From Acidimicrobiia bacterium (GTDB taxonomy: Bacteria; Actinomycetota; Acidimicrobiia; Spongiisociales; ZC4RG35), in assembly GCA_041599115.1 (NCBI GenBank), contig JBFHXF010000001.1:1-57596 (forward strand): a stretch of DNA of 57,596 nt. The letters are read 5' to 3'. The notes below the pieces were generated by a model, which worked only from the letters and a program-made list of their open reading frames with translations, did not search any database and was not told the DNA's origin. Positions 3,180 through 34,034 of the stretch are shown in pieces. Every line of letters starts with the position of its first letter. Position 1 is the first letter of the stretch. A program made the translations under genes and the position numbers.

Positions 3180-3220
3180 TCGCTATTGCCGTAGCCCAAC
3201 TCCGTTTAGCATCATGGCCC

Positions 3221-4063
3221 GTGACCAATGATGTGACCGCTACTTCCAGTACCGCAAGCGACACCATCAAAAAGATCGGTCCTGCCCTCGTCATCGCATC
3301 GATACTGGGATCGACGCTGGGAATCGTCGTCGCCCAGTTCCTCGACGACCTGGGTGACGGCTTGTTGGCCCAAGTCCTGGGTGGCAACGCGATCCTTTTC
3401 AACAACAGAGTCGAGTTCACCGGCGCCTCCGACCTGGCCTGGGCAGGGGGCTTCCTGCTGTGTCTGATCGTGGGACTGTTGATGCTCTTCACCTATCCCA
3501 CCGCTCGCGGCCACGGTGTTGCCCGATTGACCCTTCTCTGGATGCTGCTCCACATTCTCCGGCAGGCGTTCCTTCAGGCGATCCTGCTACCTATCGAGCC
3601 CTCTAGCCAGCTCGCCCTGGCGTATCGAACACTGGACGCCCCCCCGGGTCTCGAGGTCGTGATCGCCGCCGGTGGCGCAGTCGGGCTCTTGCTGATCGCC
3701 CTCTCAGCGGCGGCTGCTTTCCTGACCTTCACACCCCACCGTCGACTGATCTCCACAGGGAAGAGACGATTCAGCCTGGCTCTATGGCTTGGACTTGTTC
3801 CTGCAGCCATCTCCATCTTCCTGGCGATTCCATACTTCGCCTCGGGTGTGAGCAGCGGCGTCATACCCGCGCTTCCGCTGACCGCACTCATGTTCCTGGC
3901 GACCCTGGCCGCTGCCCCAGGCACCACGACCGTGCAAGGTCCCGAAGACCAGAGAGAAACCCCGATGCCGTGGGGACTCGGAGCCACTCTCGCGGTGATC
4001 ATGCTGTTGGAGATACTCATCTTCCGGGGCGGGGTGTCGGTCAACCCGATCCTTTGGGGTTGA
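3221..4063 (+). CDS. polytopic membrane protein, hypothetical
   Basis: ORF 3080-4063. Its first 140 nt overlap the thioesterase gene on the opposite strand, so GTG 3221 (or 3233) is the likelier start. About 7 hydrophobic segments. Confidence 0.55.
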   Translation: MTNDVTATSSTASDTIKKIGPALVIASILGSTLGIVVAQFLDDLGDGLLAQVLGGNAILFNNRVEFTGASDLAWAGGFLLCLIVGLLMLFTYPTARGHGVARLTLLWMLLHILRQAFLQAILLPIEPSSQLALAYRTLDAPPGLEVVIAAGGAVGLLLIALSAAAAFLTFTPHRRLISTGKRRFSLALWLGLVPAAISIFLAIPYFASGVSSGVIPALPLTALMFLATLAAAPGTTTVQGPEDQRETPMPWGLGATLAVIMLLEILIFRGGVSVNPILWG

Positions 4064-4068
4064 GCGAC

Positions 4069-4539
4069 GTGAAGGCCCTGATCGTCACGGTCAGCGACGG
4101 TGTGAGCTCCGGGGCACGCGAAGACCTTTCAGGGGAGTTGCTGGCTGAATCACTGGCGACCGCAGGCTTTACCGTCGAGAGGGTGGTTGTCCCGGACGAG
4201 CAGCGCGACATCGTCGGGGCAATCCAAGACGCCACCGGTGAGTTCGATCTGGTGCTCACAACCGGTGGTACAGGATTCGGTCCGCGCGATGTGACCCCGG
4301 AGGCGACGGCCATGACCCTCGACAGGGAGGCGCCGGGAATCGTGCATCTGATGACGTCCAAGGGGCTGGAATCAACACCCTACGCCGCCCTGTCCCGGGC
4401 GCGGGCGGGAACCGTCGGGCGCACCCTGGTGGTGAACCTTCCCGGGTCGCCGAAGGGAGCGTCGGAAGGTCTGGAGGCGATAATCGATCTTCTTCCCCAC
4501 GTGCTGGGTCTCATCGCCGGCGACACCGAGCACAAATAG
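4069..4539 (+). CDS. mogA: MogA/MoaB-family molybdopterin adenylyltransferase
   Basis: VKALIVTVSDGVSSG...LVLTTGGTGFGPRDVTPEAT...VVNLPGSPKGA are canonical MoCF_biosynth motifs. Start is GTG 4069 or TTG 4060, overlapping the upstream stop. Confidence 0.85.
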   Translation: MKALIVTVSDGVSSGAREDLSGELLAESLATAGFTVERVVVPDEQRDIVGAIQDATGEFDLVLTTGGTGFGPRDVTPEATAMTLDREAPGIVHLMTSKGLESTPYAALSRARAGTVGRTLVVNLPGSPKGASEGLEAIIDLLPHVLGLIAGDTEHK

Positions 4540-4598
4540 GCCCATCCTCTGGTGATTCACTACCGTTTACCGGCTACAGAGCTTTGTCGAGGAGGATT

Positions 4599-5156
4599 AT
4601 GAGGATCACCCAAGAATTCGTGGTGGCACGTTCCCCTGATGTCGTGTGGCGCTTCTTTCAAGATGTGCCGGCCGTGGCGGCATGCCTCCCGGGCGCCGAA
4701 CTCCTCGGTCAGGGAGACGACGGGTCGTACGAGGGCCGGGTGTCGGTCAAGCTCGGTCCCATGCAGGCCGCCTTTGAGGGAAAGGCGACGGTGGCTCCCG
4801 ATGCCGCCAGCCTGAGCGCGACCATCGACGGCAAGGGTGTCGACAAGCGGGGCGGATCGAGGGGCCAGGTCAAGGTGGTATACGCCATCGCGGCCGCTGA
4901 CTCCGCATCCCGGGTGAGCGTCGACGCCGATATCATTCTTTCCGGGCCGGTGGCCCAGTTCGGGCGGACAGGTCTCATCAATGAAATGTCGAAGAGACTC
5001 ATCGAAGAGTTCGTCACTTGTCTCGAGGCGAAGCTGGCTGCGGGAACCGACGAGGAAGCGGCTGCCATCCGAGCCCCTGAAGTCCGCGGGATATCCCTCT
5101 TCCTTGTCTCCCTCTGGGCTTGGATAAAGAGACTCTTCAGCCGGAGAGATATTTGA
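4599..5156 (+). CDS. CoxG/SRPBCC family protein (carbon monoxide dehydrogenase subunit G-like)
   Basis: MRITQEFVVARSPDVVWRFFQDVPAVAACLPGAEL...GRVSVKLGPMQAAFEGKA is a typical CoxG N-terminus. GAGGAGG RBS sits 4 nt upstream of ATG 4599. Confidence 0.8.
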   Translation: MRITQEFVVARSPDVVWRFFQDVPAVAACLPGAELLGQGDDGSYEGRVSVKLGPMQAAFEGKATVAPDAASLSATIDGKGVDKRGGSRGQVKVVYAIAAADSASRVSVDADIILSGPVAQFGRTGLINEMSKRLIEEFVTCLEAKLAAGTDEEAAAIRAPEVRGISLFLVSLWAWIKRLFSRRDI

Positions 5157-5542
5157 GAACCCGAATCGGGGTGCTGACCATTCTGGGTCTGCTCACCCTC
5201 GCCTCATGTGGTGATGCCGGCGCTTCCGGCAAGCTCGAGACCATCACCGGTCAGGATGTCACCGTTCGGATGTTCGACAACCGATATGAGTACAACGACA
5301 TCAAGGTCCCTGTAGGAGGGTCGGTCACCTGGCTCGGTGCCGGGCGCAATGCCCACAACGCCGAGGATGCCGGAGGCACCTGGTCCACCGAGAGTGTTTT
5401 CGGCACTCTGGATCAATACAGGGGGGATGAGGCGACGATCACATATGATCAGCCCGGTGTTTACCCGTTCTTCTGTTCCTATCACGGGAATGCCGACGGC
5501 GAGGGGATGGCAGGTGTGCTGACAGTGGGCACCGCGGAGTGA
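5153..5542 (+). CDS. cupredoxin (plastocyanin/azurin-like blue copper) lipoprotein
   Basis: Lipobox ..GLLTLASCGD. C-terminal type-1 Cu ligand pattern FFCSYHGNADGEGM (C-x2-H-x7-M) plus an upstream NAHN His. TTG 5153 overlaps the coxG-like stop. Confidence 0.75.
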   Translation: MRTRIGVLTILGLLTLASCGDAGASGKLETITGQDVTVRMFDNRYEYNDIKVPVGGSVTWLGAGRNAHNAEDAGGTWSTESVFGTLDQYRGDEATITYDQPGVYPFFCSYHGNADGEGMAGVLTVGTAE

Positions 5543-7188
5543 TGGCGAAGGGATCAGCTTGGGTGGTGGCCGGGGTGGCTCTGGTCCTGGCGGCTTGCGC
5601 CGGGCCTCCGACAGGCGATCCTTCCCCCGCCGCTGTCGGCGACACAACGACCGATTCTCCTGCTGAATGGAGCGGCGCCACCCTTCACGTGCCTGCCGAA
5701 TACCCGACGATCCAGGCCGCCGTCGATTCGGCCGAACCAGGCGATCTGATCCTCATCGACCGCGGAGTCTTCAAGGAGCAGGTGACGGTCACCACCCCCG
5801 GGTTGACGCTGCGGGGGGTGGATAGGAACGAGGTGATCATCGATGGGGAGTTCGAGAGGGCGAACGGGGTTTTGGTCCTGGCCAATGGGGTGGTCGTCGA
5901 GAATATGACCGCAATGAACAACACTGGCAACGGATTCTTCTGGACCGGCGTACGGGGTTACCGCGGTTCCTACCTCACCGCGGTCAACAATGCGATCTAC
6001 GGGATATATGCCTTCAACTCGGGCGACGGGATATTCGATCACTCGTACGCTTCGGGCTCGCAGGATGCCGGGTTCTATATCGGCCAGTGCAATCCGTGCG
6101 ACGCCGTGATCACCGACTCGATCGCGGAGCACAACGGTTTGGGATACTCGGGATCGAACGCCTCCACCGAGATCTATCTGGTCAACTCCGTCTGGAGATA
6201 CAACGGAACCGGCATGGTGCCCAACACCCTCGACGGAGAGCTCATACCCCCAGCCGAGAACGTCGTTATCGCAGGAAACTTGATCCATGACAATGGTTAC
6301 GGAGACTTCCCCCATCTTCGCCTCGAATGGACCGCTCAGGGCAACGGAATCATGCTCCCCGGCGTGGTCGATTCCCTCATCACCAAGAATCGGATTGTCA
6401 ACAGTGCCGGCAATGGCATCCAGTTGAACCCCAATCCAGACGAGAACGTCTGGATGGCAGGCGGGAATACCGTTACAGACAACGTGATCGAGGGCTCTGG
6501 ACTCGCTGATCTGACCATGACCGGCCCCTCTCAATCGGGGAATTGCTTCGAGGGGAATGAGCATTCATCCTCGCTCCCGCCGGTCCTGCAGTTCAAGCAG
6601 GGGTGTGATGGTCTGAGGTTTCCCGCGCTCTGGGAGTTGGGTTCGCTTTCCGCGCAGTTCGGGCGGTTGCTCGAATACAACCTGGGTCTGGCGCCCGACG
6701 TGGACTACACGAAGCTGGCGCACCCCGGACCACAGCCTCAGATGCCGGGCGGGGCAGCCGCGGATGTCACACCGGCCTATTTCGTCTATGAGGATGCCAA
6801 ACCCGACCTCGACTCGATCCACCTTCCAGAAATGCCGCCAGATTTGAAAGTAACGCAGGAGAAAGGATTCAACATCATGGGTGTGAGCTTCGCTTCAACC
6901 CTGGGAGGCGTCATTGGCCTCTACGCCTACGTGCTACCCCTCGTGCTCTATACAGCATGGGTCGTGCTGGCTCTGTGGGATATCTCACGCCGCGAGGACC
7001 TGGGAAAGGGGGCAGGCTTGGGCTGGATGGGCGCAATCCTGGTGATTCCGTTCCTTGGGGTCGTCGCCTATTACATCTTTGGGAAGAGCACGATATCGGT
7101 CGCTCAACGCTGGGTGCTGCTCGCCGGAGGTCTCGGGGTGTACGCCCTCTTCTTGGTCATCGGCCTGGTGGTCGGTGGCGTCGTCTGA
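5539..7188 (+). CDS. NosD-like right-handed parallel beta-helix lipoprotein with C-terminal PLDc_N-type membrane domain
   Basis: Lipobox VALVLAAC. Repeated beta-helix turns (NNTGNGFFW, NNAIYGIYAF, EHNGLGYSG, IHDNGYGDF, NSAGNGIQL, TDNVIEGSG). C-terminus WVVLALWDISRREDLGKGAGLGWMGAILVIPFLGVVAYYIFGK. An alternative ATG at 5542 overlaps the upstream stop. Confidence 0.75.
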   Translation: MMAKGSAWVVAGVALVLAACAGPPTGDPSPAAVGDTTTDSPAEWSGATLHVPAEYPTIQAAVDSAEPGDLILIDRGVFKEQVTVTTPGLTLRGVDRNEVIIDGEFERANGVLVLANGVVVENMTAMNNTGNGFFWTGVRGYRGSYLTAVNNAIYGIYAFNSGDGIFDHSYASGSQDAGFYIGQCNPCDAVITDSIAEHNGLGYSGSNASTEIYLVNSVWRYNGTGMVPNTLDGELIPPAENVVIAGNLIHDNGYGDFPHLRLEWTAQGNGIMLPGVVDSLITKNRIVNSAGNGIQLNPNPDENVWMAGGNTVTDNVIEGSGLADLTMTGPSQSGNCFEGNEHSSSLPPVLQFKQGCDGLRFPALWELGSLSAQFGRLLEYNLGLAPDVDYTKLAHPGPQPQMPGGAAADVTPAYFVYEDAKPDLDSIHLPEMPPDLKVTQEKGFNIMGVSFASTLGGVIGLYAYVLPLVLYTAWVVLALWDISRREDLGKGAGLGWMGAILVIPFLGVVAYYIFGKSTISVAQRWVLLAGGLGVYALFLVIGLVVGGVV

Positions 7189-20058: not shown

Positions 20059-20635
20059 GCGGATGTCGGGCGTCGTACAGATGCCTTGGGGTGAGGAGCA
20101 GAGCCAGCGCGAGCGACAGGATCACCATCATTCCTCTCGACTCGAGTCCCCAGCCCTGAGGCCAATGGAATACCTGCCAGGCCACTGAGAGGAGGATGGC
20201 GCCACCGAGGGCTATGAGCGTGGCATATCCCGATGATCTCGTGAGCAGAAGCGCGATGGCAATCAGGACGACCAGCGCCGGGAAGGCCAAAGGCCAGGCC
20301 GCGAGGAGCACTCCGCCCGTGATCGAGAGTCCTTTCCCCCCGTCAAAGCGGTACCACATGTTGTAGATGTTGCCGGTGATGGAGGCGATGCCGGCCAGGA
20401 CGGCACCAGTCTCGCCGCCGAGGGTGGTACCGATGATCACCGCCAGCGCACCTTTGGACATCTCGACGAGGAGGACGATCGCTGCCAGCCGAATACCCCC
20501 CACACGACGGGCGTTGTTGGCCCCAGGGTTTCCCGAGCCGGAGGTTCTCAGATTCACACCGAACATCCGGGCTATCCCGTTGGCCGTGGGCATCGAACCG
20601 ATCAGATATCCCAGCAGCGGGGCGAGGGCGATCAC
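20051..20635 (-). CDS. plsY: acyl-phosphate:glycerol-3-phosphate acyltransferase
   Basis: LGYLIGSMPTANGIARMFGVNLRTSGSGNPGANNARR is typical PlsY. The GTG start overlaps the adnB stop (GTGA). Confidence 0.9.
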   Translation of the reverse strand: MIALAPLLGYLIGSMPTANGIARMFGVNLRTSGSGNPGANNARRVGGIRLAAIVLLVEMSKGALAVIIGTTLGGETGAVLAGIASITGNIYNMWYRFDGGKGLSITGGVLLAAWPLAFPALVVLIAIALLLTRSSGYATLIALGGAILLSVAWQVFHWPQGWGLESRGMMVILSLALALLLTPRHLYDARHPLR

Positions 20636-23600
20636 GGTCGTGAGGTCCAGACCTGTCCGGGGCTGCAGAAACCAAGAAAATCACAGTTGGCGCACCACCG
20701 ACCCGGTCGCTCTTCAAATGCGGCTTGCGAGATGTCCGCAGTGAGTGCCCCCAGATGCGATCTGGCTGTATCGGTCCATTCACGGTCGGCGTGATGGGTC
20801 TCTATCGTCAAACCACCGCCGAAATAGGCGAAGGTGACGTCCATTGTCGTAGGTGTGTCGAGGCCGAAATCGACCTCCAGACCGGCCACCGCATATGCCT
20901 CCAATTGGACCATTCGGGCGTCATCGGTGCTGGGTCTTCCGCTCTTGAAATCGACGATCTCCCAACGGCCCTCATCGTCATAGACGGCATCGATGCGTCC
21001 CCTCACCCTGTAACCGTTGTCGAGTTCAAGCTCGAAAGGAGCCTCAACCAGCGCTGGCTGTTTGGCGGCGAAGCGCGATTCCCGAAATACGTGGAAGCCA
21101 CCCGGCCCGACCGCCTCTTCCGGGACGTCGTACAGGTCGGGCTCCACCTCATCGAAGGGGACCTGACCGCGGTGAAACAACTCGATTCTCCGGTGGAACT
21201 CGGTGCCTGCTATCGCGGCCGGATTTCGCCGTCTGGGAAGGGGATCGACATCGGACCAGTAGAACCGCTTTGGGCATTGTGCGTAGGTGACCAGTCCGGT
21301 CACCGAAACCACCCGGGTCCGCTCCGACGTCACGGCAGGTTCGATGCGACCGAGGTCGAACAGACGATCAGTCAACCGCTCGACCTCCTCTTCGAACTCG
21401 ACGGAAACACCCAGCGACTCGGCCAGATCTGCCATTGTCGTTTCGGTTTCGACTGTTCGCCGGAGGGCCTCATTCCACCCGCCACGGAAGAGTGGGTCGG
21501 GTGAGGCCTCCGCTTCATTGGCGGCCAGTATGGCCGGTCTCGGTGGGGCTTCCTCGTGAGTCCGCACATTGACCTGGGCATGCGAAGCGACCATTTCAAA
21601 AAGCTCGGACGGCTTGCTTGGCTTTAGCTTGGGCTCGGGAAGGCCGTACCAGTACGCGCCGGTGACGATCAGGGTGTGTTTGGCCCGGGTGGTGGCGACA
21701 TAGGCGATTCGCCACTCCTGGATGTCGTTCCGCTCCTTGAAGAAATCATCGCGAGCCTGTCGATCCTCGGGCATCTCATCGAGAAGGTGGTCGATCCGAA
21801 AGGCCGGAGGGACGTACTCGGCGAATCGAAGGGGGTCGGGATGCTGGATGGACCGGCCGGGAAAACTCTGATGCACCACGACCGGAACGGCCACAATGTC
21901 CCATTCCAGACCTTTGGCCCTGTGGACGGTCACCAATGTCACCGCATCCTCGCCGGAGAGATGAGCCGAGTCGAGCTCTTCCGCAGGCTCGTCTTCCATC
22001 GCCTCGAGATACTCGAGGAAGGCGCCCAGCGAAGGGCGGCCTCCAAGGGGACTCCAGTCTTCGGCGAGGTCCAGCATCCGATAGATATTGAGCCTCGCCG
22101 TGAGCCTTTGGTTCTTGGGGAGGGAATCCATGTCCCTCCAGGCGTTGGTTCGATCAAGGACGAGCCGGCAAGTTTCGACCAGGCTGACTCCCTGGGACTC
22201 CACCAGAATCCCTCGGTACGTCTCGAAAAAATGGGTGAGTGTCTTTCTGGCTTCTTCGCGTAGCTCGATCTCCTCGCAGTGTTCTATCGCTTCGAGAATC
22301 GTTATGGCTGGTACTTCTTCACTGTCCTCGTCGAGATCCTGAGAATGGACCCAGGCTGAAAGCGGAGCGATATCGGCCAGGCCGAGCCTGTAGCGGCTTC
22401 CCAGCAGGATCTGAGCGACCGCGGCAGAATCTCCGGGTCGTTCCAGAATGGTGAGCCAGGAGCGCAAGTCGCTGATCTCGGGGACCGACAGAAGGCCGCC
22501 CAAGTTGGCGACTTCCACCGGGATGTCGGCCCGTCTCATGGCGTCGACCACAACAGCGAAATCCTTGTTCTTGCGGAACAGCACGGCCATCGATTTCCAA
22601 GGAGCGCCCTCCTGGTGCAGAGCTTCGAATCTTGCCGCGACGAAATCGGCTTCTGCCACGGCATCCCCTACCCAGGCGGTGATCACCTGGCCACCCACCA
22701 CGCTCCCGTGGGGCTCCAACCGGTTAGCGACGGGATTGGCCCTCAATCGGACGTGGTTTGCCACCTCGAGGATCTCGGGGGCAGACCGGCGATTGGTGGT
22801 GAGACTGAGATCGTGGGCATGCTGCCCTCCCGAACGCGGGAAATGATCGAGGAACATTTCGAAATTCTCTGCCGATGCTCCCCGCCATTCGTAGATCGTT
22901 TGATCCTCGTCCCCGACGGCGATCACCGGAAAGCCGTTCCCGAAGATCGTGTTGAACAGGACCCGTTGCGCCGGGTTGGTGTCCTGGTACTCGTCCAGCA
23001 CCACGACCTGGTACCGGCTTCTCACCTCGGCGGCCAGCAACGGGTGGAGGATCATGAGACGTGAAGAGAGCAGGACAAGGTCGCCATAGTCGACGACTCC
23101 GAGTCTCAGTTTGTCTGCCTCGTAACCCTCGAGCGTGGCCAACATCTCAGCCCGGGATTTGGCTACATCGTCGGCATCATCGAGAAGGCGCGGCAGGTCG
23201 GCGGGGAGAAGGAGTTGATCGGCGAGTCGGTCACCCAACATGCGGATTCTGTCGATCATCCTGGGAGAGGTGATGTCGAGCTGGTCATATCGAGTTCGAT
23301 GAAACCTCTCACCGATGAGCTGCCGAGAAAAGGTGGGGGTGATCACCCTTATTCGACTGCTCAGACCGGCGAGCGAGGCGAATTCCGAAAGGACCTGGGT
23401 GGCAAAGCCGTGATAGGTGTGGACCTCGACCTGGCGTCCGTCGTCGATCTGGGATGCGAGGTTCTCTCGAATCCGGTCACTGAGTTCGGCTGCCGCCTTG
23501 TTGGTGAAGGTGATACCCAGGACCCTTTCCGGCTCGACCTGTTTGGTGTTGACCAGGTTGGCCACGACCATCGCCACGGTTGTCGTCTTGCCTGTGCCGG

Positions 23601-23676
23601 CCCCGGCACGAATCCGAATCGAGTCGAGTCCGAGATCCAACACTCCCTGCTGTTCTGGCGAAGGTTGGTGGATCAT
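20632..23676 (-). CDS. adnB: UvrD-like helicase / RecB-like nuclease subunit (AdnB-type)
   Basis: ATG 23676 overlaps the adnA stop (ATGA). Walker A GAGTGKTT, DEYQDT, C-terminal nuclease GRIDAVYDDEGRWEIVDFKSG, Cys motif CANCDFLGFC. Named by gene order (second of pair). Confidence 0.8.
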   Translation of the reverse strand: MIHQPSPEQQGVLDLGLDSIRIRAGAGTGKTTTVAMVVANLVNTKQVEPERVLGITFTNKAAAELSDRIRENLASQIDDGRQVEVHTYHGFATQVLSEFASLAGLSSRIRVITPTFSRQLIGERFHRTRYDQLDITSPRMIDRIRMLGDRLADQLLLPADLPRLLDDADDVAKSRAEMLATLEGYEADKLRLGVVDYGDLVLLSSRLMILHPLLAAEVRSRYQVVVLDEYQDTNPAQRVLFNTIFGNGFPVIAVGDEDQTIYEWRGASAENFEMFLDHFPRSGGQHAHDLSLTTNRRSAPEILEVANHVRLRANPVANRLEPHGSVVGGQVITAWVGDAVAEADFVAARFEALHQEGAPWKSMAVLFRKNKDFAVVVDAMRRADIPVEVANLGGLLSVPEISDLRSWLTILERPGDSAAVAQILLGSRYRLGLADIAPLSAWVHSQDLDEDSEEVPAITILEAIEHCEEIELREEARKTLTHFFETYRGILVESQGVSLVETCRLVLDRTNAWRDMDSLPKNQRLTARLNIYRMLDLAEDWSPLGGRPSLGAFLEYLEAMEDEPAEELDSAHLSGEDAVTLVTVHRAKGLEWDIVAVPVVVHQSFPGRSIQHPDPLRFAEYVPPAFRIDHLLDEMPEDRQARDDFFKERNDIQEWRIAYVATTRAKHTLIVTGAYWYGLPEPKLKPSKPSELFEMVASHAQVNVRTHEEAPPRPAILAANEAEASPDPLFRGGWNEALRRTVETETTMADLAESLGVSVEFEEEVERLTDRLFDLGRIEPAVTSERTRVVSVTGLVTYAQCPKRFYWSDVDPLPRRRNPAAIAGTEFHRRIELFHRGQVPFDEVEPDLYDVPEEAVGPGGFHVFRESRFAAKQPALVEAPFELELDNGYRVRGRIDAVYDDEGRWEIVDFKSGRPSTDDARMVQLEAYAVAGLEVDFGLDTPTTMDVTFAYFGGGLTIETHHADREWTDTARSHLGALTADISQAAFEERPGRWCANCDFLGFCSPGQVWTSRP

Positions 23677-26627
23677 GAGATATACGCTCCCCGTCCTTGT
23701 GGCCAGGCAGGACACGAGGTCTGGAACTCGCACTTGCCGCACCTCTCATTGACACGGGGCGCCCAGATCTCACCCAGGATCGCAAGGGTGATCTCGGCCA
23801 TCGCCGCTGTCGCCTGGTCGAGACTCTCGATGTCGAGTTTTCGCACGGTCACACCGACAGAGTTGGCCCTGGGAAACCACATCTCAGCGCCTCGGACCGC
23901 TTCTCCGAAAACCCGGTTTGCCGCCGTGGCGTAGAAGGCGAGTTGAATGGACTCGGCGGCAGCAGCAACGCTCGGGTACGACTTGCCCGACTTGTAGTCG
24001 ACGACCTGCAACCCGTCTTTGGTGCGTTCGAGGCGATCAATGAGGCCCACCCAGGCAACACCCTCTATCTCGGTCTCGACCCTGGTCTCCAGGGCGAGGG
24101 GGACTCCGTTCCCGGGCCATCGGTCGTACAGTTTCGTGAGCCCCTCGATGGCATGCCGCTTCCATGCCTCGTTCAGCTGCGGCGTGCCGAAATCGGCATC
24201 CTTCCAAACCTCCTCGATTGCATCAAGGGCCGTGGCGAGATCCGCATGAGTCGCCCCTGTTCCCAGAATGGTCGATTCTGAGATCTCCAGGACGCGATGC
24301 ACCAGAGAGCCGAAGCGGGCGTAGGGTGATTCGCTGTCTCCCAGGCGCAAGCGGCGCTCCATGGCGTATCGGCGCGGACAGGTCGCGTACGACTCGGCCT
24401 GGCTGGGCGACAGGCGGATCGAAACAGGGAGGAGTGGGGCGTCCGGTCCGAAGGCGGGAACCCCGGCGAAACGGTCCGGCTCCCACCATCCGCCCGGCGC
24501 TGTGGCGAGAACCTGCGTGGCGGCCAATCGAGCCACGGCCGGGGCATGCGGGTCGAGGACCTTTCGCCGCAGCGATACCTCGAACTCGGAGACCGTCACC
24601 GGGTCCAGCTGGGACTCCTTGGGAGCTCCCAGGGATTCGATCGACGTGACCCCTGCGGCTGCAATCAGGAAGCGGGAAGGTCGTCGCTCCCCCTGGTCCA
24701 CGCCGGCGTCAGTAGCCGTCCACACCACCCTCCTCTTCGCCCTCGTCATGGCGGTGTATGCCAGACGCATCTCCTCCTGAACTTGGAACAGATGCTGCGC
24801 GCCGATATTGGTGGCCCGTTCCGGTGAAAGGAGTTCTGGCCGGAGCATTCTCCGGCTGCGGCGCAGGTCCGGAAAGACACTTTCGACCGCATTGGCGATG
24901 AAGACATGGTCAAACTCCAGTCCTTTGGCCTGGTGGAGGGTGGTCAAAGTGATCTGGTCCGTGTGCGGGGTGGGCGAAATCAGCGGGGTGGCCTCGAAAT
25001 CTTCTTCCTCGGTCAGCTCGAAGTAACGGGCGAGGGAGACGCTCGGGTCCCGATCGGCCTGCCGGCTGAGCGCCTGGGCGAAGGAGCTGAAAGCCAGGCG
25101 CCATTGATCCTTGTCAGGGTGTTTGGCGATCGCCTCGAAGACTCCGAGGCTGGTCCACAGGTGCCAGAACCCTTCGCTGGCCGGTCCGGAGGTCGCCCAG
25201 CGATTGTCAACCAGGATTCCTCTCAGATCGCTGGCTGCAACCCCTTCTTGTTCGAGGATGTCCACCCAAGAAAGCCCAAGCCGGCGGCGGCGTCTCGCCA
25301 GATCACGCTCTTTTCCCAGGGAGGTGGCAAACAGCGGACCAAGCATTACGCGGCGCATGGCCCGGTCGGCCTCCGCTGCCTGACCGGGTGGGACGCCTCT
25401 GGCCGATCCGCCCTGGACGGCAACGGTCACCAGATCGTTGACGAGGCGAATCGCAGGATGATCGACAAGTCTGCGTCTCGGCGGGTCGTGGGGCAGGTCG
25501 CGTCGTTGCAGAGCTCGACTCAGCTCGTTGAGCATTTCCCTCTTGGATCTCACCAGAATGGCGATGTTCCCCGGGAGGACCCCCTCGGCCCTGACGGCGT
25601 GCTCGATCTCCTGAGCGATCCACTCCGCTTCGGCGGTTTCCTGATCGAAGATGTAGGCGTCGACCCGTCCAGCGCCTGCAGCTGGTTTGACGGGCCCGGC
25701 GGCACCGGGGAGATCGCCAGAGGACACCACCCTCAGGGCTGCTTCCAGTATCTCTGGAGGAACCCGGAAGCTGCGGTCCAGGACCAGTCGCAGACATCCT
25801 TCGTGCTGTTCACCGAAAGCCGCGATGTTTCGAACCTCGGACCCCCGGAAGGAATAGACCGACTGGTAGGGATCTCCAGCCACCGTCAGATTGCCGTTGG
25901 GCCTGGCCAGGAGGTTGGCAATCGATGCCTGAGCGGGAGATGTGTCCTGGTAGTCGTCGACCAAGACGAACCTGTAGCCGCTTGCGATCTGCTGGCCTCG
26001 GGTGGTTCGGAGAAAGTCAACCGCAGAGACGAGAAGAGTGCCGTAATCGATCCTCTCCATGTCGAGGAGGCGTTGGCGGTATTTTTCGAAGAACTCGGGG
26101 ATGCCCCGCCAGTCGTGTCGCTCGAGCGCTTTTTGCCGGAGGTCCTCCGGGGACAGCAACCGCTCGGCGCATCGCATCAAGAAGTCGGCGATCTCGGCTG
26201 CGAAGGCGGGGGAGGGGAGGATCCCTCGATAGATGAGGGGCCAATCGGTAGGCCGTTCGGCTCTGAGAAGGTCACCGACGACCGCTACGTGTTCGGGTGT
26301 GGTCAGCGGTATGGGTCGCTGGCCTGATCCAACTTCGAGCAACCTCAGGGAGAGGCTGTGGAAGGTGGACGACTCGACCGGCATTCCGGATTGGCCCAGG
26401 GACTCGGTGATTCTGCGGCGAAGATCGGACGCCGACCTCCTGGAGAAGCTGAAGACCGCCACCTCATCGCGGCGGGCCAGACCGGACCCCACGATGGAAG
26501 CCACCCGGCGAACCAGGAACTCCGTCTTCCCCGTACCGGGCCCGGCGACGATCAACTGCGCACCATCCGCTCGGTCGAGCCATTGACCCCACTCTTGGGG
26601 GGAGATCCGATGGTCCCTCACAGCCAC
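23673..26627 (-). CDS. adnA: UvrD-like helicase / RecB-like nuclease subunit (AdnA-type)
   Basis: 984 aa. Walker A GPGTGKTE, DDYQDT, nuclease GLIDRLERTKDGLQVVDYKSG, Cys motif CGKCEFQTSC. First gene of the pair. Confidence 0.8.
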   Translation of the reverse strand: MAVRDHRISPQEWGQWLDRADGAQLIVAGPGTGKTEFLVRRVASIVGSGLARRDEVAVFSFSRRSASDLRRRITESLGQSGMPVESSTFHSLSLRLLEVGSGQRPIPLTTPEHVAVVGDLLRAERPTDWPLIYRGILPSPAFAAEIADFLMRCAERLLSPEDLRQKALERHDWRGIPEFFEKYRQRLLDMERIDYGTLLVSAVDFLRTTRGQQIASGYRFVLVDDYQDTSPAQASIANLLARPNGNLTVAGDPYQSVYSFRGSEVRNIAAFGEQHEGCLRLVLDRSFRVPPEILEAALRVVSSGDLPGAAGPVKPAAGAGRVDAYIFDQETAEAEWIAQEIEHAVRAEGVLPGNIAILVRSKREMLNELSRALQRRDLPHDPPRRRLVDHPAIRLVNDLVTVAVQGGSARGVPPGQAAEADRAMRRVMLGPLFATSLGKERDLARRRRRLGLSWVDILEQEGVAASDLRGILVDNRWATSGPASEGFWHLWTSLGVFEAIAKHPDKDQWRLAFSSFAQALSRQADRDPSVSLARYFELTEEEDFEATPLISPTPHTDQITLTTLHQAKGLEFDHVFIANAVESVFPDLRRSRRMLRPELLSPERATNIGAQHLFQVQEEMRLAYTAMTRAKRRVVWTATDAGVDQGERRPSRFLIAAAGVTSIESLGAPKESQLDPVTVSEFEVSLRRKVLDPHAPAVARLAATQVLATAPGGWWEPDRFAGVPAFGPDAPLLPVSIRLSPSQAESYATCPRRYAMERRLRLGDSESPYARFGSLVHRVLEISESTILGTGATHADLATALDAIEEVWKDADFGTPQLNEAWKRHAIEGLTKLYDRWPGNGVPLALETRVETEIEGVAWVGLIDRLERTKDGLQVVDYKSGKSYPSVAAAAESIQLAFYATAANRVFGEAVRGAEMWFPRANSVGVTVRKLDIESLDQATAAMAEITLAILGEIWAPRVNERCGKCEFQTSCPAWPQGRGAYIS

Positions 26628-28184: not shown

Positions 28185-28188
<4 letters not shown>

Positions 28189-28970
28189 ATCGGTTCGGCG
28201 AATGCCGGGCAGATCTCCTGGTAGGAGCACCAGTCGCACAGCCGACCGGGACGGGTGGGAAATCGGTCCGATGCCAGGGCTCGCTCGATGGCCGTCCACA
28301 AGGCTTGGAGTTGGCTGTGCATTGCGTCGAGTTGCCGGTCGTCGATCGCGAGGCGGTACATCGTCGGACCGTTCAGGTAGAGCAGCCGGATTTCCTTTGG
28401 CGTCTCGCCGGTCCTCTCTCTGATGAGCAGGGCGTAGATCTTCAATGCGAAGAAGGCGGGCAGGGCGTAGCTCTCCGGAGGGGCTTTCCCGGTCTTGTAG
28501 TCGGTGATGATGAGTGCGCCATCGTCGGCGCGATCCATCCGGTCGAGGATTCCCCTGATGGTGAGTCCGTCGAGCTCCTGGGTCATATCCAGCTCGCGAT
28601 CGACCGGCTCGATCAGTTGAGGGTCTTCGACAGTGAAGTAATTGGCCAGAAGCTGCATGGAGTCGACACCCCAAACACGCTCTTCCTCGAGATCATCGAA
28701 CAGGTGCTCGTACTCGTCACTGCTACGCAATTCGGTCCATGCGGCCCGGAACAGGTCATAGAGATTCTCAGGCGATCGCTCCTGGGCCGGCATGTCGAAG
28801 AGGCGCTGCAAGGCCAGGTGGGCAGTGGTACCACGGGCTTGATAGATCGATGCCGGCTCGGGGATCTTGTCGATGGCACGGAACTTGAACAATTGGGGGC
28901 ACGTCTTGAAGTCCCCGGCGCGACTTGGCGAAAGGGTCTGCAGAGTCGGGTTTTCCAGTTCCATCGTCAT
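28185..28970 (-). CDS. RecB-family PD-(D/E)XK exonuclease (Cas4/AddB-like, four-Cys)
   Basis: 261 aa. GILDRMDRADDGALIITDYKTGK nuclease core. Cys at FKTCPQLF plus CDWCSYQEIC at the C-terminus. Confidence 0.85.
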
Positions 28971-29022
28971 TCACACGATCTTAGGAACCGGGTCTGACAG
29001 ATTCCGGCCAACCGAGAACCTC

Positions 29023-29052
29023 CGCGAAAACTCTTGCTAGCGCGCGAAAAAC
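29023..29052 (+). repeat. direct repeat pair CGCGAAAAC / CGCGAAAAAC (20-nt register)
   Basis: Copies at 29023-29031 and 29043-29052. In the divergent promoter zone, upstream of the putative -35 at 29069. Confidence 0.5.
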
Positions 29053-29068
29053 TTCGAGAGGGATCGCC

Positions 29069-29097
29069 TTGACGACCCCGGCGATGGGCCGTACCTT
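29069..29097 (+). promoter_or_regulatory. putative sigma-A type promoter TTGACG-17 nt-TACCTT
   Basis: -35 TTGACG at 29069-29074 and -10 TACCTT (TANNNT) at 29092-29097. Predicts a TSS near 29104. Sequence-only inference. Confidence 0.35.
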
Positions 29098-29175
29098 CGT
29101 TAGCACTGATCAGGGGGAGACCTCAGATCAGGGAAAGAGGGACTTCGGTTCCTCTGGATCGTCGCCCGGCTGGGG

Positions 29176-29254
29176 GCCCGCTTTCCGGCTGGGTGGCAAT
29201 GAGAGCCCCGAGAGGGCTGAGGCTTCGGCCGAAGCTCGCTCGGGGTTTCTCGTG
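29176..29254 (+). repeat. hairpin module copy A (core hairpin 29201-29251)
   Basis: GAGAGCCCCGAG-AGGGCU-GA-GGC(UUCG)GCC-GA-AGCUC-G-CUCGGGGUUUCUC: about 20 bp in three stacked helices with a tandem G.A internal loop. Confidence 0.6.
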
Positions 29255-29266
29255 TCCCGGACCGGG

Positions 29267-29298
29267 TCGCGAAAACAGGAATCCAGGTCGCGAAAAAC
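29267..29298 (+). repeat. direct repeat pair GGTCGCGAAAAC / GGTCGCGAAAAAC (21-nt register)
   Basis: Copies at 29265-29276 and 29286-29298. Same CGCGAAAA core as the pair at 29023-29052. Confidence 0.5.
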
Positions 29299-29665
29299 AA
29301 TCAAGCTTCTGGCTTGCCAGTCGCACGGCAATGGTCTACTTTCGTTTTCACGCCAAAGGGGAAACTTGGAGGCGTACCCGACCAGCAGGTACGGAGCGGC
29401 GAAAGCCGAGCCGGGAAGAATTCCCGCAGGAAGGGTGTCGGAGCACCGGGAAACTGGGGCTTCGGCAGGCCGGAAGTCCGGACGGGGATCCTTCGGGATC
29501 GTCGAGCGGGTTTCCACGGCCAGCGGGTCTCACGACTCGCAACATCTTCTCGGAGACGAGAAGAGCGGCCCGACAGGCGGCATCTGCCGAAAGGCAGGAG
29601 CAAACCATCGGATCGCACGCCCGAGGCTTCGGCCAACGGCATTCCCGACCGGAGTTGGGTCCCCG

Positions 29666-29739
29666 GCCCGATTCCAACTGGGACGAGAACCCCGAGAGGG
29701 TTGAGGCTTCGGCCAAGGCTCCCTCGGGGTCTTCTCGCG
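29666..29739 (+). repeat. hairpin module copy B (core hairpin 29685-29736)
   Basis: Direct-orientation copy of module A about 485 nt downstream. Six substitutions plus one 1-nt indel across the ~54-nt core, and none breaks a base pair. Confidence 0.6.
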
Positions 29740-29752
29740 TTTGAACGACCCA

Positions 29753-29795
29753 GCGTGTGCAGGGGGAAGCGTGTGACCCGCTCTACTGCACACGC
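29753..29795 (+). terminator. perfect 10-bp stem hairpin (GCGTGTGCAG-N23-CTGCACACGC), possible terminator/attenuator without U-tract
   Basis: Read directly. Ends 22 nt before the ATG at 29818. No T-run follows, so intrinsic-terminator status is uncertain. Confidence 0.35.
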
Positions 29796-29817
29796 AACAG
29801 CCTGTAGCCTGGGTGAC

Positions 29818-30423
29818 ATGTCCTACCCACGCAAGCTTCTCAGCAGTGGCGAGACCATAGGCGCCGAGTTCCGGCCCCACTGGTCGTCCATCCTCAGGGA
29901 ACTTCTCCTGCTGATTTTGACCCTGGTCTTCGTCATCCTCGGTGCCATCAACGGCTTTTCCGGATGGGTGCTGGCTGCGATCTCGGTGGCGGCGGTGGCC
30001 CTGGTGGCAAAGGGGTTGATCCGCTGGTACACCACGATCCACGTGATCACCAACGAGCGGGTCATCTATCGCTCCGGTCTGATTTCGAAGCGGGGGAAGG
30101 AGATCCCGCTCGAGGTGGTCAACGATGTGGCTTTCAGCCAATCGGTTTTCGAACGTATCTTCGGAACGGGCGATCTGCTCATCGAATCTGCCGGGGAACA
30201 GGGTCAATCCAGGTACACCGACATACCCAACCCGGAAGGTGTCCAGTCGCTCATCTACTCGGCCCGTGAGACCCGCACCCTGCAGTTGAGGGGAGTCGGC
30301 ACCGCGACGTCGGGGGAGTCGACCGCCTCGCAGTTGGCAACTCTGTCCAGACTGCTCGACGAGGGAAAGCTCACCGTTGAAGAGTTCGCCCGCGAAAAGA
30401 GCAAGCTTCTCGGAGGTTTGTGA
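29818..30423 (+). CDS. membrane protein with bPH_2 (YdbS/DUF304-like) domain and C-terminal SHOCT domain
   Basis: 201 aa from ATG 29818. Two TMs, then ITNERVIYRSGLISKRGKEIPLEVVNDVAFSQSVFERIFGTGDLLIES (bacterial PH). Tail LATLSRLLDEGKLTVEEFAREKSKLLG (SHOCT). Confidence 0.75.
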   Translation: MSYPRKLLSSGETIGAEFRPHWSSILRELLLLILTLVFVILGAINGFSGWVLAAISVAAVALVAKGLIRWYTTIHVITNERVIYRSGLISKRGKEIPLEVVNDVAFSQSVFERIFGTGDLLIESAGEQGQSRYTDIPNPEGVQSLIYSARETRTLQLRGVGTATSGESTASQLATLSRLLDEGKLTVEEFAREKSKLLGGL

Positions 30424-33033: not shown

Positions 33034-33756
33034 CTATTCGTGGGCGGTTTCTACGGCGTCGGCCATCTCCGCCAAAGAGAGAAAGGTGTAATCCGGACTT
33101 GGGATGTCCTTCACCTCGAGGGTGGCTCCCCAATCTCCCCCGACCGACAGGCCTTGACGGTCGATCCAGGCGGTGGCCAGACCGATCGCACTGGCGGGAA
33201 CATGATCATGAAAGAGGCTCTGTGCAGTATGGAGTATCTGGTGCGGCTCCACGCCGAGATCCTCTCGGAGACGGCTTATCAAGAAGCGGAAGTTGGCCGG
33301 ATTCGGTTTATAGGAGCCAATGTCCTCGGCGGTGTAGACGGCGTCGAAATCCACTGCGAGAAGCCGATTGGAGAGGGCGAAACTGGCGCGATCCACATTG
33401 GAAAGGATGACCAGTGAAAAGAACGACTTCAATCTGATCAGAGCGCCGGCGCTGTCCGCGAATGCCGGCCACCTGCCGACCGAGGATCCGAACCTCAAGT
33501 CCATGTCGGTGCTCGTGGTCAACGAGAAGCGCTCCGCAATCAGATGATGGGCTTGTTGCAGAACCTCCGGGTAGGCCACGCCGGGTAACTCCGCTTCGGT
33601 CATCGTCTCGATCTCCGCGTACGCCTGGAGCACCTCGGGTCGGGAAGGCGGATCGTTGCCCGTGACGAGAAGAGGTTGCAGGGCGTGCCACAAGCCCGTT
33701 TCCCAATCGATCAGGGTTCCGTAGCAGTCGAATGTCAGGGCCCGGAACTCGGTCAA
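33034..33756 (-). CDS. haloacid dehalogenase type II / HAD-superfamily hydrolase
   Basis: Motif I LTFDCYGTLIDW, later ILSNVD and SYKPNP. TTG 33756 has a GGAG 11 nt upstream. The longer ORF overlaps the upstream small gene. Confidence 0.75.
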   Translation of the reverse strand: MTEFRALTFDCYGTLIDWETGLWHALQPLLVTGNDPPSRPEVLQAYAEIETMTEAELPGVAYPEVLQQAHHLIAERFSLTTSTDMDLRFGSSVGRWPAFADSAGALIRLKSFFSLVILSNVDRASFALSNRLLAVDFDAVYTAEDIGSYKPNPANFRFLISRLREDLGVEPHQILHTAQSLFHDHVPASAIGLATAWIDRQGLSVGGDWGATLEVKDIPSPDYTFLSLAEMADAVETAHE

Positions 33757-33773
33757 GTCCCGCTTAGCTCCGC

Positions 33774-34034
33774 TCAGACTTCGACCAGCTGTCCCGAGGT
33801 GAGGTCGAGAACGAACTCCTTGTTGCTCTTGGAGTCGGCGATGAACTGCGCCAGGCGAGCGCCGGTCTTTCGCACGATCCACCATGCATAATCTTCGGAC
33901 CCAGAGTCCATGAAGATCCGCCGTGCCTCACGGGCCGCTTCGACAGCCGTTGTCTCATCGGCAAAGGTGCCCAGTAGGTTCTGTATCGGTTCAGGTTCGA
34001 ACCTCGATTCTATGAACTCGACCGCCTCGAACAT
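33774..34034 (-). CDS. small acidic hypothetical protein (86 aa)
   Basis: Strong GAAGGAGG RBS 7 nt upstream of ATG 34034. Globular-looking composition. I recognise no family. Confidence 0.6.
   Translation of the reverse strand: MFEAVEFIESRFEPEPIQNLLGTFADETTAVEAAREARRIFMDSGSEDYAWWIVRKTGARLAQFIADSKSNKEFVLDLTSGQLVEV

Follow-up and report, generated by a model that had tools for sequence, protein, structure and literature searches.

The region between positions 28971 and 29817 of the window (the whole 57,596-nucleotide stretch of DNA analysed here) probably contains two adjacent, independently transcribed, paralogous small RNA genes that share a 3′-terminal hairpin module. About 160 genomes and metagenome contigs of uncultured Acidimicrobiia carry this twin RNA locus at one shared chromosomal position, where the order is a PD-(D/E)XK nuclease gene, the RNAs, a gene for a bacterial PH-domain protein (bPH), and an acyl-CoA ligase gene. 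Each unit carries two CGCGAAAA boxes 20-21 bp apart followed by a −35/−10 pair. The best reading of the module is that it would act as a shared terminator and as a hairpin that protects the 3′ end, and it probably doubles as an element recognized by a protein partner. The features of the region are as follows.

28185-28970, − strand: gene for a PD-(D/E)XK (RecB/Cas4-like) nuclease of 261 aa, divergent from the RNA genes (Pfam PF12705, E = 1.3e-35)
29023-29030 and 29043-29050, + strand: CGCGAAAA boxes of unit 1, near-invariant in 56 orthologous promoters
29069-29074 and 29092-29097, + strand: promoter-like element of unit 1, from the sequence (−35 TTGACG, 17-nt spacer, −10 TACCTT)
29105-29254, + strand: predicted short RNA of ~150 nt with four hairpins (fold and 36-sequence alignment)
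29106-29131, + strand: hairpin H1 of the short RNA, GNRA-type loop (fold)
29136-29155, + strand: hairpin H2 of the short RNA, UUCG loop (fold)
29161-29197, + strand: hairpin H3 of the short RNA, loop CCCGC(U), with an invariant tip GGGGGCCCGCUUUCC at 29172-29186
29201-29254, + strand: module A, the 3′-terminal three-helix hairpin (H4) of the short RNA (fold; model score 82.3 bits)
29268-29275 and 29289-29296, + strand: CGCGAAAA boxes of unit 2 (59 orthologous promoters)
29314-29319 and 29337-29342, + strand: promoter-like element of unit 2 (−35 TTGCCA, 17-nt spacer, −10 TACTTT; conserved architecture)
29350-29739, + strand: predicted long RNA of ~390 nt, a chain of ~12 local hairpins with module B as the last (two alignments)
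29484-29504, + strand: hairpin GGGGAUCCUUCGGGAUCGUCG of the long RNA, a direct repeat, invariant in 36 sequences
29618-29641, + strand: hairpin of the long RNA carrying a third tip, GAGGCUUCGGCC, at 29623-29634 (repeat finder)
29643-29683, + strand: penultimate hairpin (helix 13) of the long RNA, C-rich apical loop, with invariant GGAGUUGGGUCCCCGGCCCGA at 29651-29671
29685-29739, + strand: module B, the 3′-terminal hairpin of the long RNA (model score 75.9 bits)
29805-30423, + strand: gene for a bPH_2 plus SHOCT protein, ATG at 29818 (Pfam)

Structure and conservation of the terminal module

A sequence-only reading of this DNA had described cores A (29201-29254) and B (29685-29739) as direct copies about 485 nt apart, and both the coordinates and the sequences proved to be as claimed. 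The repeat finder returned a 46-nt repeat (29201-29246 and 29685-29730) with 89% identity at a distance of 484 nt, and global alignment of 29201-29254 with 29685-29739 gave exactly the six substitutions and one 1-nt indel that had been counted by eye. Three of the substitutions are at paired positions (G.U to A-U, C-G to U.G, and U-A to U.G) and, as had been proposed, break no pair; the other substitutions affect the 2x2 internal loop, the 1x1 mismatch position, or the tail. Folding of each copy reproduced the suggested three-helix hairpin with a UUCG loop at −36.9 kcal/mol (z = −5.3) for module A and −32.5 kcal/mol (z = −3.4) for module B, such that both are stable GC-rich hairpins of the type found in intrinsic terminators; the reverse strand folds less well (−26 kcal/mol). 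When the window was searched with a 25-nt module pattern allowing up to three mismatches, only modules A and B matched, with 0.00 matches expected by chance. The weaker similarity noted upstream of the cores is real and corresponds to the penultimate hairpins of the short and long RNAs. The repeat finder also located the third GAGGCTTCGGCC at 29623-29634, and the hairpin that carries it (helix 12) has compensatory changes in four of its seven pairs. CGAGAGGG does occur at 29055-29062, inside the unit 1 promoter region, but it is an octamer rather than the heptad described, and its presence there looks incidental.

Across 141 distinct module copies, 97.9% of the cells are paired and 8 of the 20 pairs have compensatory changes between the two arms, which, together with strand-asymmetric model scores, bears out the proposal of a structurally constrained RNA domain, encoded on the + strand. 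Covariance-model scores are 45-85 bits in the sense orientation and 20-33 bits in antisense; the low antisense scores are due to conserved G.U pairs, and this strand asymmetry indicates selection at the RNA level. Conservation at the base of the module (CCCCGAGAGGG / YYCUCGGGG) far exceeds what pairing needs, and a terminator role alone does not explain it, with the qualification that the apparent invariance of the 5′ arm is largely by construction, as the exact-pattern searches fixed this arm and only ~20 divergent copies found by the model put it to the test. The module is followed by a conserved tail, UUUCUCGCG, with four U in eight positions, and sequence conservation ends after UUUCUCGCG(U); a terminator scan requiring at least five T in eight makes no call here. 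In module A, the tail UUUCUC pairs with the 5′ GAGAG of the module. The sequence of the module stays almost the same even where the flanking proteins have diverged to 40-80% identity.

Promoter-like elements and predicted transcripts

The 57.6-kb window contains paired CGCGAAAA boxes at only two places, with 0.01 occurrences expected, and we infer that this direct repeat either binds an activator or is a phased A-tract element. The unit 1 promoter-like element has the consensus gCTTGACG-N17-TACtTT, which is conserved in 56 sequences, and transcription is predicted to start near 29105. The unit 2 promoter contains a conserved TGGTC in its spacer, aligns colinearly with that of unit 1 (TACCTTCGTTAGCA against TACTTTCGTTTTCA), and is predicted to start transcription near 29350. 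A consensus scan of the sigma-70 type called neither a promoter nor a terminator on the + strand here; the elements differ from the consensus of E. coli. The position of the boxes is fixed at −175/−155 relative to module A, and ranges from about −300 to −530, typically −360 to −440, relative to module B.

Comparative alignments support the predicted folds of both RNAs, with covariation in favour of every helix. For the short RNA, the alignment of 36 sequences has 48 pairs (95.2% paired), 24 of them with compensatory changes, compared to 10.7 +/- 1.9 in shuffled alignments and at most 12 when the structure was slid along the alignment. The long RNA, whose hairpins are mostly capped by GNRA or UUCG tetraloops, has 97 pairs in 15 helices (97.7% paired); compensatory changes were again found at 24 pairs, whereas shuffling gave 11 +/- 1.9 and sliding no more than 8. 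No conserved long-range helix was found in the long RNA alignments, and the sole long-range pair predicted in the consensus structures is invariant and isolated. Among base-pairing sRNAs, a ~390-nt RNA with a dozen conserved hairpins would be out of the ordinary, and so would a terminal hairpin with such a constant sequence.

Two other roles for unit 2 were considered and rejected. In the window, an open frame runs through unit 2 (29334-29744), and an NTG precedes the conserved GGTCTAC; in other species the frame is interrupted at 10-137 codons, just 7 of 29 keep it open throughout, and the indels in the long RNA alignments are not multiples of three, so unit 2 is not protein-coding. The many GGA-containing linkers prompted comparison with sponges of the CsrB/RsmZ type, but GGA is not enriched over dinucleotide shuffles (15.9 per long RNA versus 16.0 +/- 2.6), and AGGA is depleted.

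The two units are built on a common ground plan consisting of the boxes, the −35/−10 pair, a 5′ hairpin, a hairpin with a C-rich loop, and the module with UUUCUCGCG. Colinear alignment of the two covers the promoter, a UUCGG..GGAUCGUCG block, the penultimate hairpin, and the module; the block is represented in the short RNA by UUCGG...GGAUCGUCG at 29145-29164, which is related to the invariant GGGGAUCCUUCGGGAUCGUCG hairpin of the long RNA. Extra tetraloop-capped hairpins expand the plan of the short RNA into that of the long one. On this comparative evidence (boxes, −35/−10 pairs, module, and colinear alignment), the locus consists of adjacent paralogous units, each with its own putative promoter and terminator.

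Distribution and genomic context

An exact module 24-mer was found in 87 stretches from 83 species-representative assemblies and in 77 metagenome contigs, all of the Acidimicrobiia type; the assemblies are metagenome-assembled genomes. Virtually every contig of sufficient length had the flank with GDH and the PD-(D/E)XK nuclease and the flank with bPH and the acyl-CoA ligase, and 72 of the 77 metagenome contigs matched the same syntenic region; the metagenome matches comprise contigs of at least 1 kb only and are informative for synteny but not for transcript ends. Each locus or assembly has one to three module copies, and the complete 3.25-Mb chromosome OY970227.1 has a single locus. A covariance model identified ~158 strong copies in 696 kb of sequence; 67 of 88 sources have two copies each, and no copy lies elsewhere than at the locus. 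All but four of these copies are oriented as the bPH gene, the exceptions being an inverted copy in each of the loci L032, L055, L026, and L041. Searches of 72,556 plasmids and 50,697 phages with blastn gave no match, and an origin from mobile elements was rejected. The whole window had no match in Rfam 15 at gathering thresholds, and lowering the stringency to E <= 10 for 28900-29900 and for five related loci gave only chance-level matches to miRNAs and sRNAs. Literature searches on Acidimicrobiia sRNAs and non-coding RNAs gave nothing relevant. A functional coupling of the RNAs to the PD-(D/E)XK nuclease was also considered and rejected, as the adjacency is not strict and whole clades have insertions of 0.6-1.3 kb before unit 1.

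Alternative explanations

The long RNA might instead be a riboswitch-like cis-acting leader or attenuator of the PH-domain and acyl-CoA ligase operon, with module B as the regulated terminator. The long RNA does share its orientation with the downstream gene, the last module lies a median of 74 nt from the start of bPH or the ligase, and the ligase gene directly follows the RNAs at loci that lack bPH. However, the downstream gene appears from its sequence to have a promoter of its own: in the window, a −10-like TAGCCT (29805-29810) is located 7 nt before the bPH start codon, and 54 of 88 distinct upstream regions from orthologous loci have TANNNT 5-8 nt ahead of the start codon. A long leader could not serve this leaderless layout, and the bPH mRNA is probably leaderless and transcribed from its own promoter. 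A Shine-Dalgarno-like motif precedes the downstream start codon in only 27 of the 88 regions and is absent in the window. In addition, the short RNA ends in the same module yet is followed by a promoter or by genes on the opposite strand, in one clade an abhydrolase-cyclase gene of ~1.4 kb lies between the long RNA and bPH, and the long RNA alignments have no conserved alternative (antiterminator) pairing with the module. We therefore consider a leader function unlikely.

The sequence-only reading was of an internally duplicated RNA domain, which would correspond to one RNA of ~640 nt starting near 29105 with both modules inside it. The RNA domain itself stands, but internal duplication within one RNA does not fit the data, as the copies end two paralogous genes that each have a promoter-like element. 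A single transcript is compatible with the window alone, in which the units are on the same strand only ~100 nt apart and the whole region folds much better than shuffled sequences (z = −6.75), and a leaky terminator A would yield a read-through transcript containing both modules. Against this, a full promoter-like architecture is conserved before unit 2, whereas the spacer from module A to the second pair of boxes is unconserved and variable in length. Across species, the spacer between units ranges from ~0.1 to 2.7 kb and the module-to-module spacing from 318 to 2721 nt. Where the units are 0.3-2.7 kb apart, opposite-strand protein genes lie between them in some species (at locus L007, genes for a DsrE-like protein, a DsrC-like protein, and an oxidoreductase), and unit 1 is inverted in L032. 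Furthermore, no conserved pairing between the units was found in the short and long RNA alignments. A single RNA is thus quite unlikely, and two separate genes remain the preferred reading.

A third possibility is that the twin RNAs are functional analogues or distant homologues of the RNA polymerase-binding Ms1 and 6S RNAs, or of 6C RNA with its C-rich loops. Like these, the twin RNAs are conserved, syntenic, and apparently stable non-coding RNAs of Actinomycetota; they belong to the core genome, are promoter-rich, and are 150-390 nt long, in a class where the window and five related loci gave no Rfam match. A PH-domain neighbour is shared with some Ms1 loci, 'PH domain-containing protein' being a secondary flanking-gene phrase by which Ms1 was located in Cellulomonas (PMC9130861, Table 3), and the invariant C-rich apical loop in both RNAs is reminiscent of 6C. 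However, no Rfam family was matched beyond noise at E <= 10; this covers 6S (RF00013), which also has no match at the gathering threshold, and 6C (RF01066), which has two C-rich-loop hairpins compared to one in each twin RNA. The consensus structures are chains of local hairpins without the closing stem and central bubble of the rod-like 6S/Ms1 fold. The synteny marker of Ms1 loci is a HAD-IB hydrolase gene (PMC9130861), whereas the only HAD gene nearby (33034-33885, ~3.3 kb away) scores as HAD type II / IA, and the Ms1 sequence of S. coelicolor given in the supplement of that paper shows no similarity by eye. The window was accordingly rejected as an Ms1 locus, and a relationship to any of these RNAs is very unlikely.

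Finally, the sequence-only reading had offered a REP/MITE-like repeat family as an alternative, which would make the module a selfish or structural extragenic palindrome scattered through the genome; the module is an imperfect palindrome found twice within 500 nt and inverted at the four loci mentioned above, but such repeats occur as tens to hundreds of dispersed copies without strand preference, and one to three copies per genome, confined to one intergenic region and almost always in one orientation, with strand-asymmetric G.U pairs and no copy in plasmids or phages, leave this explanation with virtually no chance of being correct.

Proposed mechanism

In the two-gene reading, a sigma-A-type promoter would drive each gene, with the two CGCGAAAA boxes positioned two helical turns apart upstream; the presence of the same boxes at both promoters suggests a common upstream input for the two RNAs. 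Transcription would then stop at the GC-rich module and the UUUCUCGCG after it, although the weak U-tract (four U in eight) means that termination may involve a factor or that the 3′ end may be made by processing. Termination at module A would insulate the promoter of the long RNA, and termination at module B would do so for the promoter of the leaderless PH-domain gene. In the released RNA, pairing of the U-rich tail with the conserved GAGAG would bury the 3′ end in a ~20-bp helix and could protect it against 3′ exonucleases. That the module is probably also recognized by a protein partner is suggested by the excess conservation at its base and by a mini-gene consisting only of promoter and module in two species (L011 and L053), which could be a recent remnant as the two are close relatives (89% identity over the region).

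Comparison with known RNAs

Tandem 'sibling' sRNA genes are known from OmrA/OmrB in E. coli, PrrF1/PrrF2 in Pseudomonas, and AbcR1/AbcR2 in alpha-proteobacteria. The twin RNAs resemble them in being encoded by two adjacent paralogous genes on one strand of one intergenic region, each with its own putative promoter and the same upstream sites, and in having conserved ends, including the putative terminator hairpin, with divergent middles. They differ in their host lineage (uncultured Acidimicrobiia), in the 2.6-fold difference in length within the pair, in the class-wide sequence conservation of the shared hairpin, and in being far more structured, with chains of tetraloop-capped hairpins and little single-stranded seed. 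GlmY and GlmZ of Enterobacteria are homologous sRNAs with a similar fold and similar promoters with upstream activator sites, and one member works by way of a protein-recognition structure common to both (the decoy principle). They offer a possible model for the shared module, the decoy idea being pure analogy here; unlike the twin RNA genes, the glmY and glmZ genes are unlinked, and the RNAs have no sequence or structural similarity to the twin RNAs.

The module is similar to intrinsic terminators in being a GC-rich hairpin with an at most weakly U-rich stretch directly 3′ of it, located where the conservation of the unit ends and before the next promoter. In contrast to intrinsic terminators, it is long (~20 bp with two internal loops), has a weak U-tract (UUUCUCGC) that the consensus scan missed, is near-invariant over more than 150 loci, and has a tail complementary to the conserved 5′ GAGAG. 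These four properties point to an additional role beyond termination.

Biological implications

The dozen-hairpin long RNA and the near-unchanging terminal hairpin suggest a protein-binding or structural role. A bolder proposal, which we regard as rather unlikely, is that the module serves as the recognition handle in a new Acidimicrobiia-specific class of abundant, stable regulatory RNAs, for example a protein-titrating pair or an RNA polymerase- or ribosome-associated pair that replaces 6S/Ms1. If this were true, the short, long, and module-only forms would compete for one partner, and the regulator acting at the CGCGAAAA boxes would set the RNA levels. Acidimicrobiia abound in soil and water; most are uncultured, and virtually no regulatory RNAs have been described from them. 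The locus provides two structured core-genome RNAs supported by covariation, neither of which is in Rfam 15, together with a candidate regulator-binding motif. In practical terms, it yields seed alignments for two new RNA families and a clean lineage marker locus for metagenomes and metatranscriptomes.

Sequence, fold and conservation of the module

A repeat finder returned two 46-nt direct copies that are 89% identical (29201-29246 and 29685-29730, 484 nt apart) and cover most of two cores, module A (29201-29254) and module B (29685-29739). The sequence-only reading had described these cores as three-helix hairpins whose differences all preserve pairing, and its account was borne out. The module sequence is present as given, global alignment of the 54- and 55-nt cores yielded exactly the 6 substitutions and one 1-nt indel counted by eye, the three changes at paired positions each retain a standard pair, and both cores formed the proposed hairpin upon folding. 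The fold opens with a 12-bp outer and lower helix, which a 1x1 mismatch separates from the 5-bp middle helix; a 2x2 internal loop and GGC(UUCG)GCC complete it. Core A has an energy of -36.9 kcal/mol (z = -5.3) and core B one of -32.5 kcal/mol (z = -3.4). The complementary strand folds more poorly by ~6-10 kcal/mol, as the conserved G.U pairs turn into A.C. The repeat finder also recovered the CGAGAGGG copy at 29055 and the third GAGGCTTCGGCC copy at 29623, the latter being the apex of a separate, covariation-supported hairpin (helix 12) of the long RNA described below. Allowing up to three mismatches, the 25-nt module pattern has no further match in the 57.6-kb window (0.00 expected).

Among 141 distinct module copies, 97.9% of cells were paired and 8 of 20 pairs showed compensatory changes. 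At the top of the outer helix, for instance, C-G is replaced by U-A; the GAGAG/UUCUC helix shows A-U to G-C, and the apical helix G-C to A-U. Each of the five measures exceeded 500 of 500 shuffles and every slid control. The scans that supplied this collection demanded an exact 5' arm, which by itself accounts for part of that arm's invariance; informative on this point are the ~20 divergent copies found with a covariance model. In these copies, the apical part varies freely (UUCG to GCAA, GGC/GCC to GUGC/GCAC) while the base, CCCCGAG(A/G)(G/U)GG ... CUCGGGG, is unchanged, indicating that sequence is conserved at the base and only structure at the tip. The duplicated module is real, non-random, and biologically meaningful.

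Three loci carry local variations. A 32-nt insertion in the module apex at L067:2882-2975 (- strand) adds two GGCUUCGGCC-type hairpin tips and keeps the conserved base. Between the last module and the downstream gene, L051 has a ~23-nt tandem duplication of the module's 3' half (AAGGCTCCCTCGGGGTTTCTCACGTCC, twice), and in L016 a GTACTGA/GTACCAA microsatellite closely follows the module.

Distribution and synteny

One genome for each of 185,579 species was scanned for exact matches to CCCGAGAGGGNTGAGGCTTCGGCC. This search resulted in 87 stretches from 83 assemblies, all metagenome-assembled genomes (MAGs) and the majority labelled Acidimicrobiia; the same scan over metagenome contigs yielded 77 additional stretches. 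A few of the MAGs (including L001, L008, L009, and L067) are titled Acidobacteriota, Boseongicola, or just "bacterium". As their flanking proteins share 65-85% identity with those of the window, mislabelling or faulty binning is probable.

Searching with the window's four flanking proteins (tblastn) gave the order glutamate dehydrogenase, convergent PD-(D/E)XK nuclease, intergenic region, bPH_2/SHOCT (a bacterial PH-domain protein, bPH), and acyl-CoA ligase in essentially every contig of sufficient length. This order was found in 72 of the 77 metagenome loci, the remaining five being 1-2 kb contigs. Within the intergenic region, the module shares its strand with the gene that follows. Elsewhere in the window (20632-26627, - strand), two adjacent large genes encoding UvrD-helicase and PD-(D/E)XK nuclease proteins (1036 and 984 aa) lie upstream of the glutamate dehydrogenase gene and resemble the AdnA/AdnB pair for double-strand-break resection.

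When the window and the 87 loci (696 kb) were searched with the covariance model, ~158 strong copies (36-85 bits) were identified, every one inside the syntenic intergenic region; the other matches (at most 33 bits) are antisense shadows of the same hairpins. Of the 88 sources, 67 have two copies, 2 have three, and 19 have a single copy, often at a contig end. The complete 3.25-Mb chromosome OY970227.1 has one locus by the CCCGAGAGGGNTGAGGCTTCGGCC scan, and no plasmid or phage record showed similarity to the module. Taken together, these data refute the alternative offered by the sequence-only reading, a REP/MITE-like repeat family.

Two tandem promoter-bearing units

Alignment of nine two-copy loci, borne out by promoter alignments of 56 and 59 orthologues, revealed two tandem units of identical layout. 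Each unit has two CGCGAAAA boxes 20-21 bp apart, a -35 element ~20 bp past the boxes (gCTTGACG in unit 1, TTGyyn in unit 2), a 17-bp spacer, a -10 element of the form TAC(N)TT, and the first hairpin of the RNA ~7 nt later.

Features of the two units in the window (all + strand)
29023 and 29043: CGCGAAAA boxes, unit 1
29069-29074: -35 element, unit 1
29092-29097: -10 element, unit 1
~29105-29254: predicted short RNA, four hairpins, ending in module A
29268 and 29289: CGCGAAAA boxes, unit 2
29314-29319: -35 element, unit 2
29337-29342: -10 element, unit 2
~29350-29739: predicted long RNA, a chain of ~12 local hairpins, ending in module B
29484-29504: invariant long-RNA block GGGGAUCCUUCGGGAUCGUCG
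29651-29671: invariant long-RNA block GGAGUUGGGUCCCCGGCCCGA, a hairpin whose apical loop is C-rich

These are the only two sites in the window with paired boxes (0.01 expected). Their positions are fixed at -175/-155 relative to module A in nearly all species and range from about -300 to -530 (typically -360 to -440) relative to module B. Past the module tail, UUUCUCGCG(U), conservation is abruptly lost. In the unit 2 spacer (29332-29342 and orthologues), a near-invariant NTGGTC directly precedes the -10; 28 of 29 sequences have A, G, or T at the N, which gives it the look of a start codon, but the frame is not conserved.

The spacing between module starts varies from 318 to 2721 nt. In L007, opposite-strand genes for DsrE-like, DsrC-like, and FAD-oxidoreductase proteins lie between the units, and in L032 unit 1 is inverted. 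These observations identify the units as separable genes rather than parts of one RNA. Of the earlier proposal of an internally duplicated RNA domain under structural constraint, the constraint therefore stands, given the covariation across 141 copies, and the internal duplication does not. The duplicated hairpin is the 3'-terminal element of RNA units that lie on the + strand, are syntenic and separable, and each bear a promoter; there are two such units and, rarely, a third. As judged from the alignments, the module is the shared 3' domain of two predicted tandem paralogous RNA genes.

Further rearrangements were noted. In four loci (L032:2935-2996, +; L055:4565-4628, -; L026:3729-3790, -; L041:1776-1835, -), one of the module-bearing units has the opposite orientation to its partner, so the units can rearrange independently. 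In L007, the region 3064-7088 holds the intervening genes and, after unit 2, an abhydrolase-adenylate cyclase gene that separates the long RNA from bPH. Clade-specific spacing classes were also found (~870 and ~1510 nt from the nuclease to unit 1; ~1430 nt after unit 2), and gene insertions seem to favour the RNA locus.

Two related species (L011 and L053) carry a third gene made up of boxes, a -35/-10 pair, and the module, and nothing more. This unit (L011:4060-4240, L053:2733-2915) is an 89% identical stretch with two CGCGAAA boxes and TTTGCG ... TATGTT, and its predicted RNA of ~60 nt is the hairpin alone.

Structure of the two RNAs

In the short RNA, H1 has a GNRA or UUCG cap, H2 a UUCG cap, and H3 the invariant tip GGGGGCCCGCUUUCC; H4 is the module. 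Across 36 sequences, its 48 pairs were 95.2% paired, with 24 compensatory pairs compared with 10.7 +/- 1.9 in shuffled alignments and at most 12 with slid partners. The long RNA varies from 290 to 530 nt, entire hairpins being gained or lost among lineages, and nearly all of its hairpins have GAAA/GAGA or UUCG caps. In 20 sequences, 97 pairs in 15 helices were 97.7% paired, with 24 compensatory pairs (11.0 +/- 1.9 shuffled, at most 8 slid); no conserved long-range helix was found in this alignment. The module is its third invariant block. A protein-coding unit 2 was rejected, as the open frame is not conserved.

The units are colinear through the promoter, start region, UUCGG..GGAUCGUCG block, penultimate hairpin, and module, and are therefore paralogues; the long RNA appears to be an enlarged form of the short one.

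Relation to the downstream gene

The median distance from the end of the last module to the start of bPH (or of the ligase where bPH is absent) is 74 nt, a proximity that could suggest the RNA is a leader of the downstream gene. Against this reading, 54 of 88 distinct bPH upstream regions have TANNNT (usually TAGCCT) 5-8 nt ahead of the start codon (a few per cent expected by chance). In the window, TAGCCT occupies 29805-29810, the ATG follows at 29818, and a Shine-Dalgarno motif is absent. The bPH_2/SHOCT mRNA thus appears to be leaderless, with its own putative promoter right after the module, which argues for the module as the end of an RNA gene and as insulation for the promoter that follows. 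A minority of species have the bPH -10 further upstream, together with a Shine-Dalgarno-like AGGAG.

Possible function and relation to known RNAs

The module would act as a terminator, factor-independent or factor-assisted, and pairing of its U-rich tail with GAGAG would bury the 3' end and stabilize the RNA. An additional role as a recognition element may be proposed because the base is invariant in sequence and a module-only gene exists. The paired CGCGAAAA boxes, centred at about -58 and -79 (two helical turns apart), are candidate sites for a common activator or promoter-strengthening phased A-tracts. The many stable tetraloop hairpins and the scarcity of single-stranded sequence are more in keeping with a protein-binding or scaffold RNA than with a classical sRNA that pairs through a seed, although pairing of the invariant C-rich loops with G-rich sites is conceivable.

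In the window and five related loci, no Rfam 15 family matches these RNAs, and no description of them was found in the literature. The lack of GGA enrichment speaks against a CsrB-type sponge. 6S and Ms1 were excluded as structural classes by the lack of a closing helix and central bubble. Ms1 synteny also fails, the nearby HAD hydrolase being type II/IA and not IB, although the PH-domain neighbour does recall a secondary phrase of Ms1 synteny. The nearest known counterparts are tandem sibling sRNA genes that have regulatory sites and a terminator in common (OmrA/OmrB, PrrF1/PrrF2, AbcR1/AbcR2), and GlmY/GlmZ may offer a functional analogy for a shared recognition structure. The two RNAs are new families, of a kind already known, from an understudied, largely uncultured class, and their significance would be greater if the module proves to be a handle for a global regulator.
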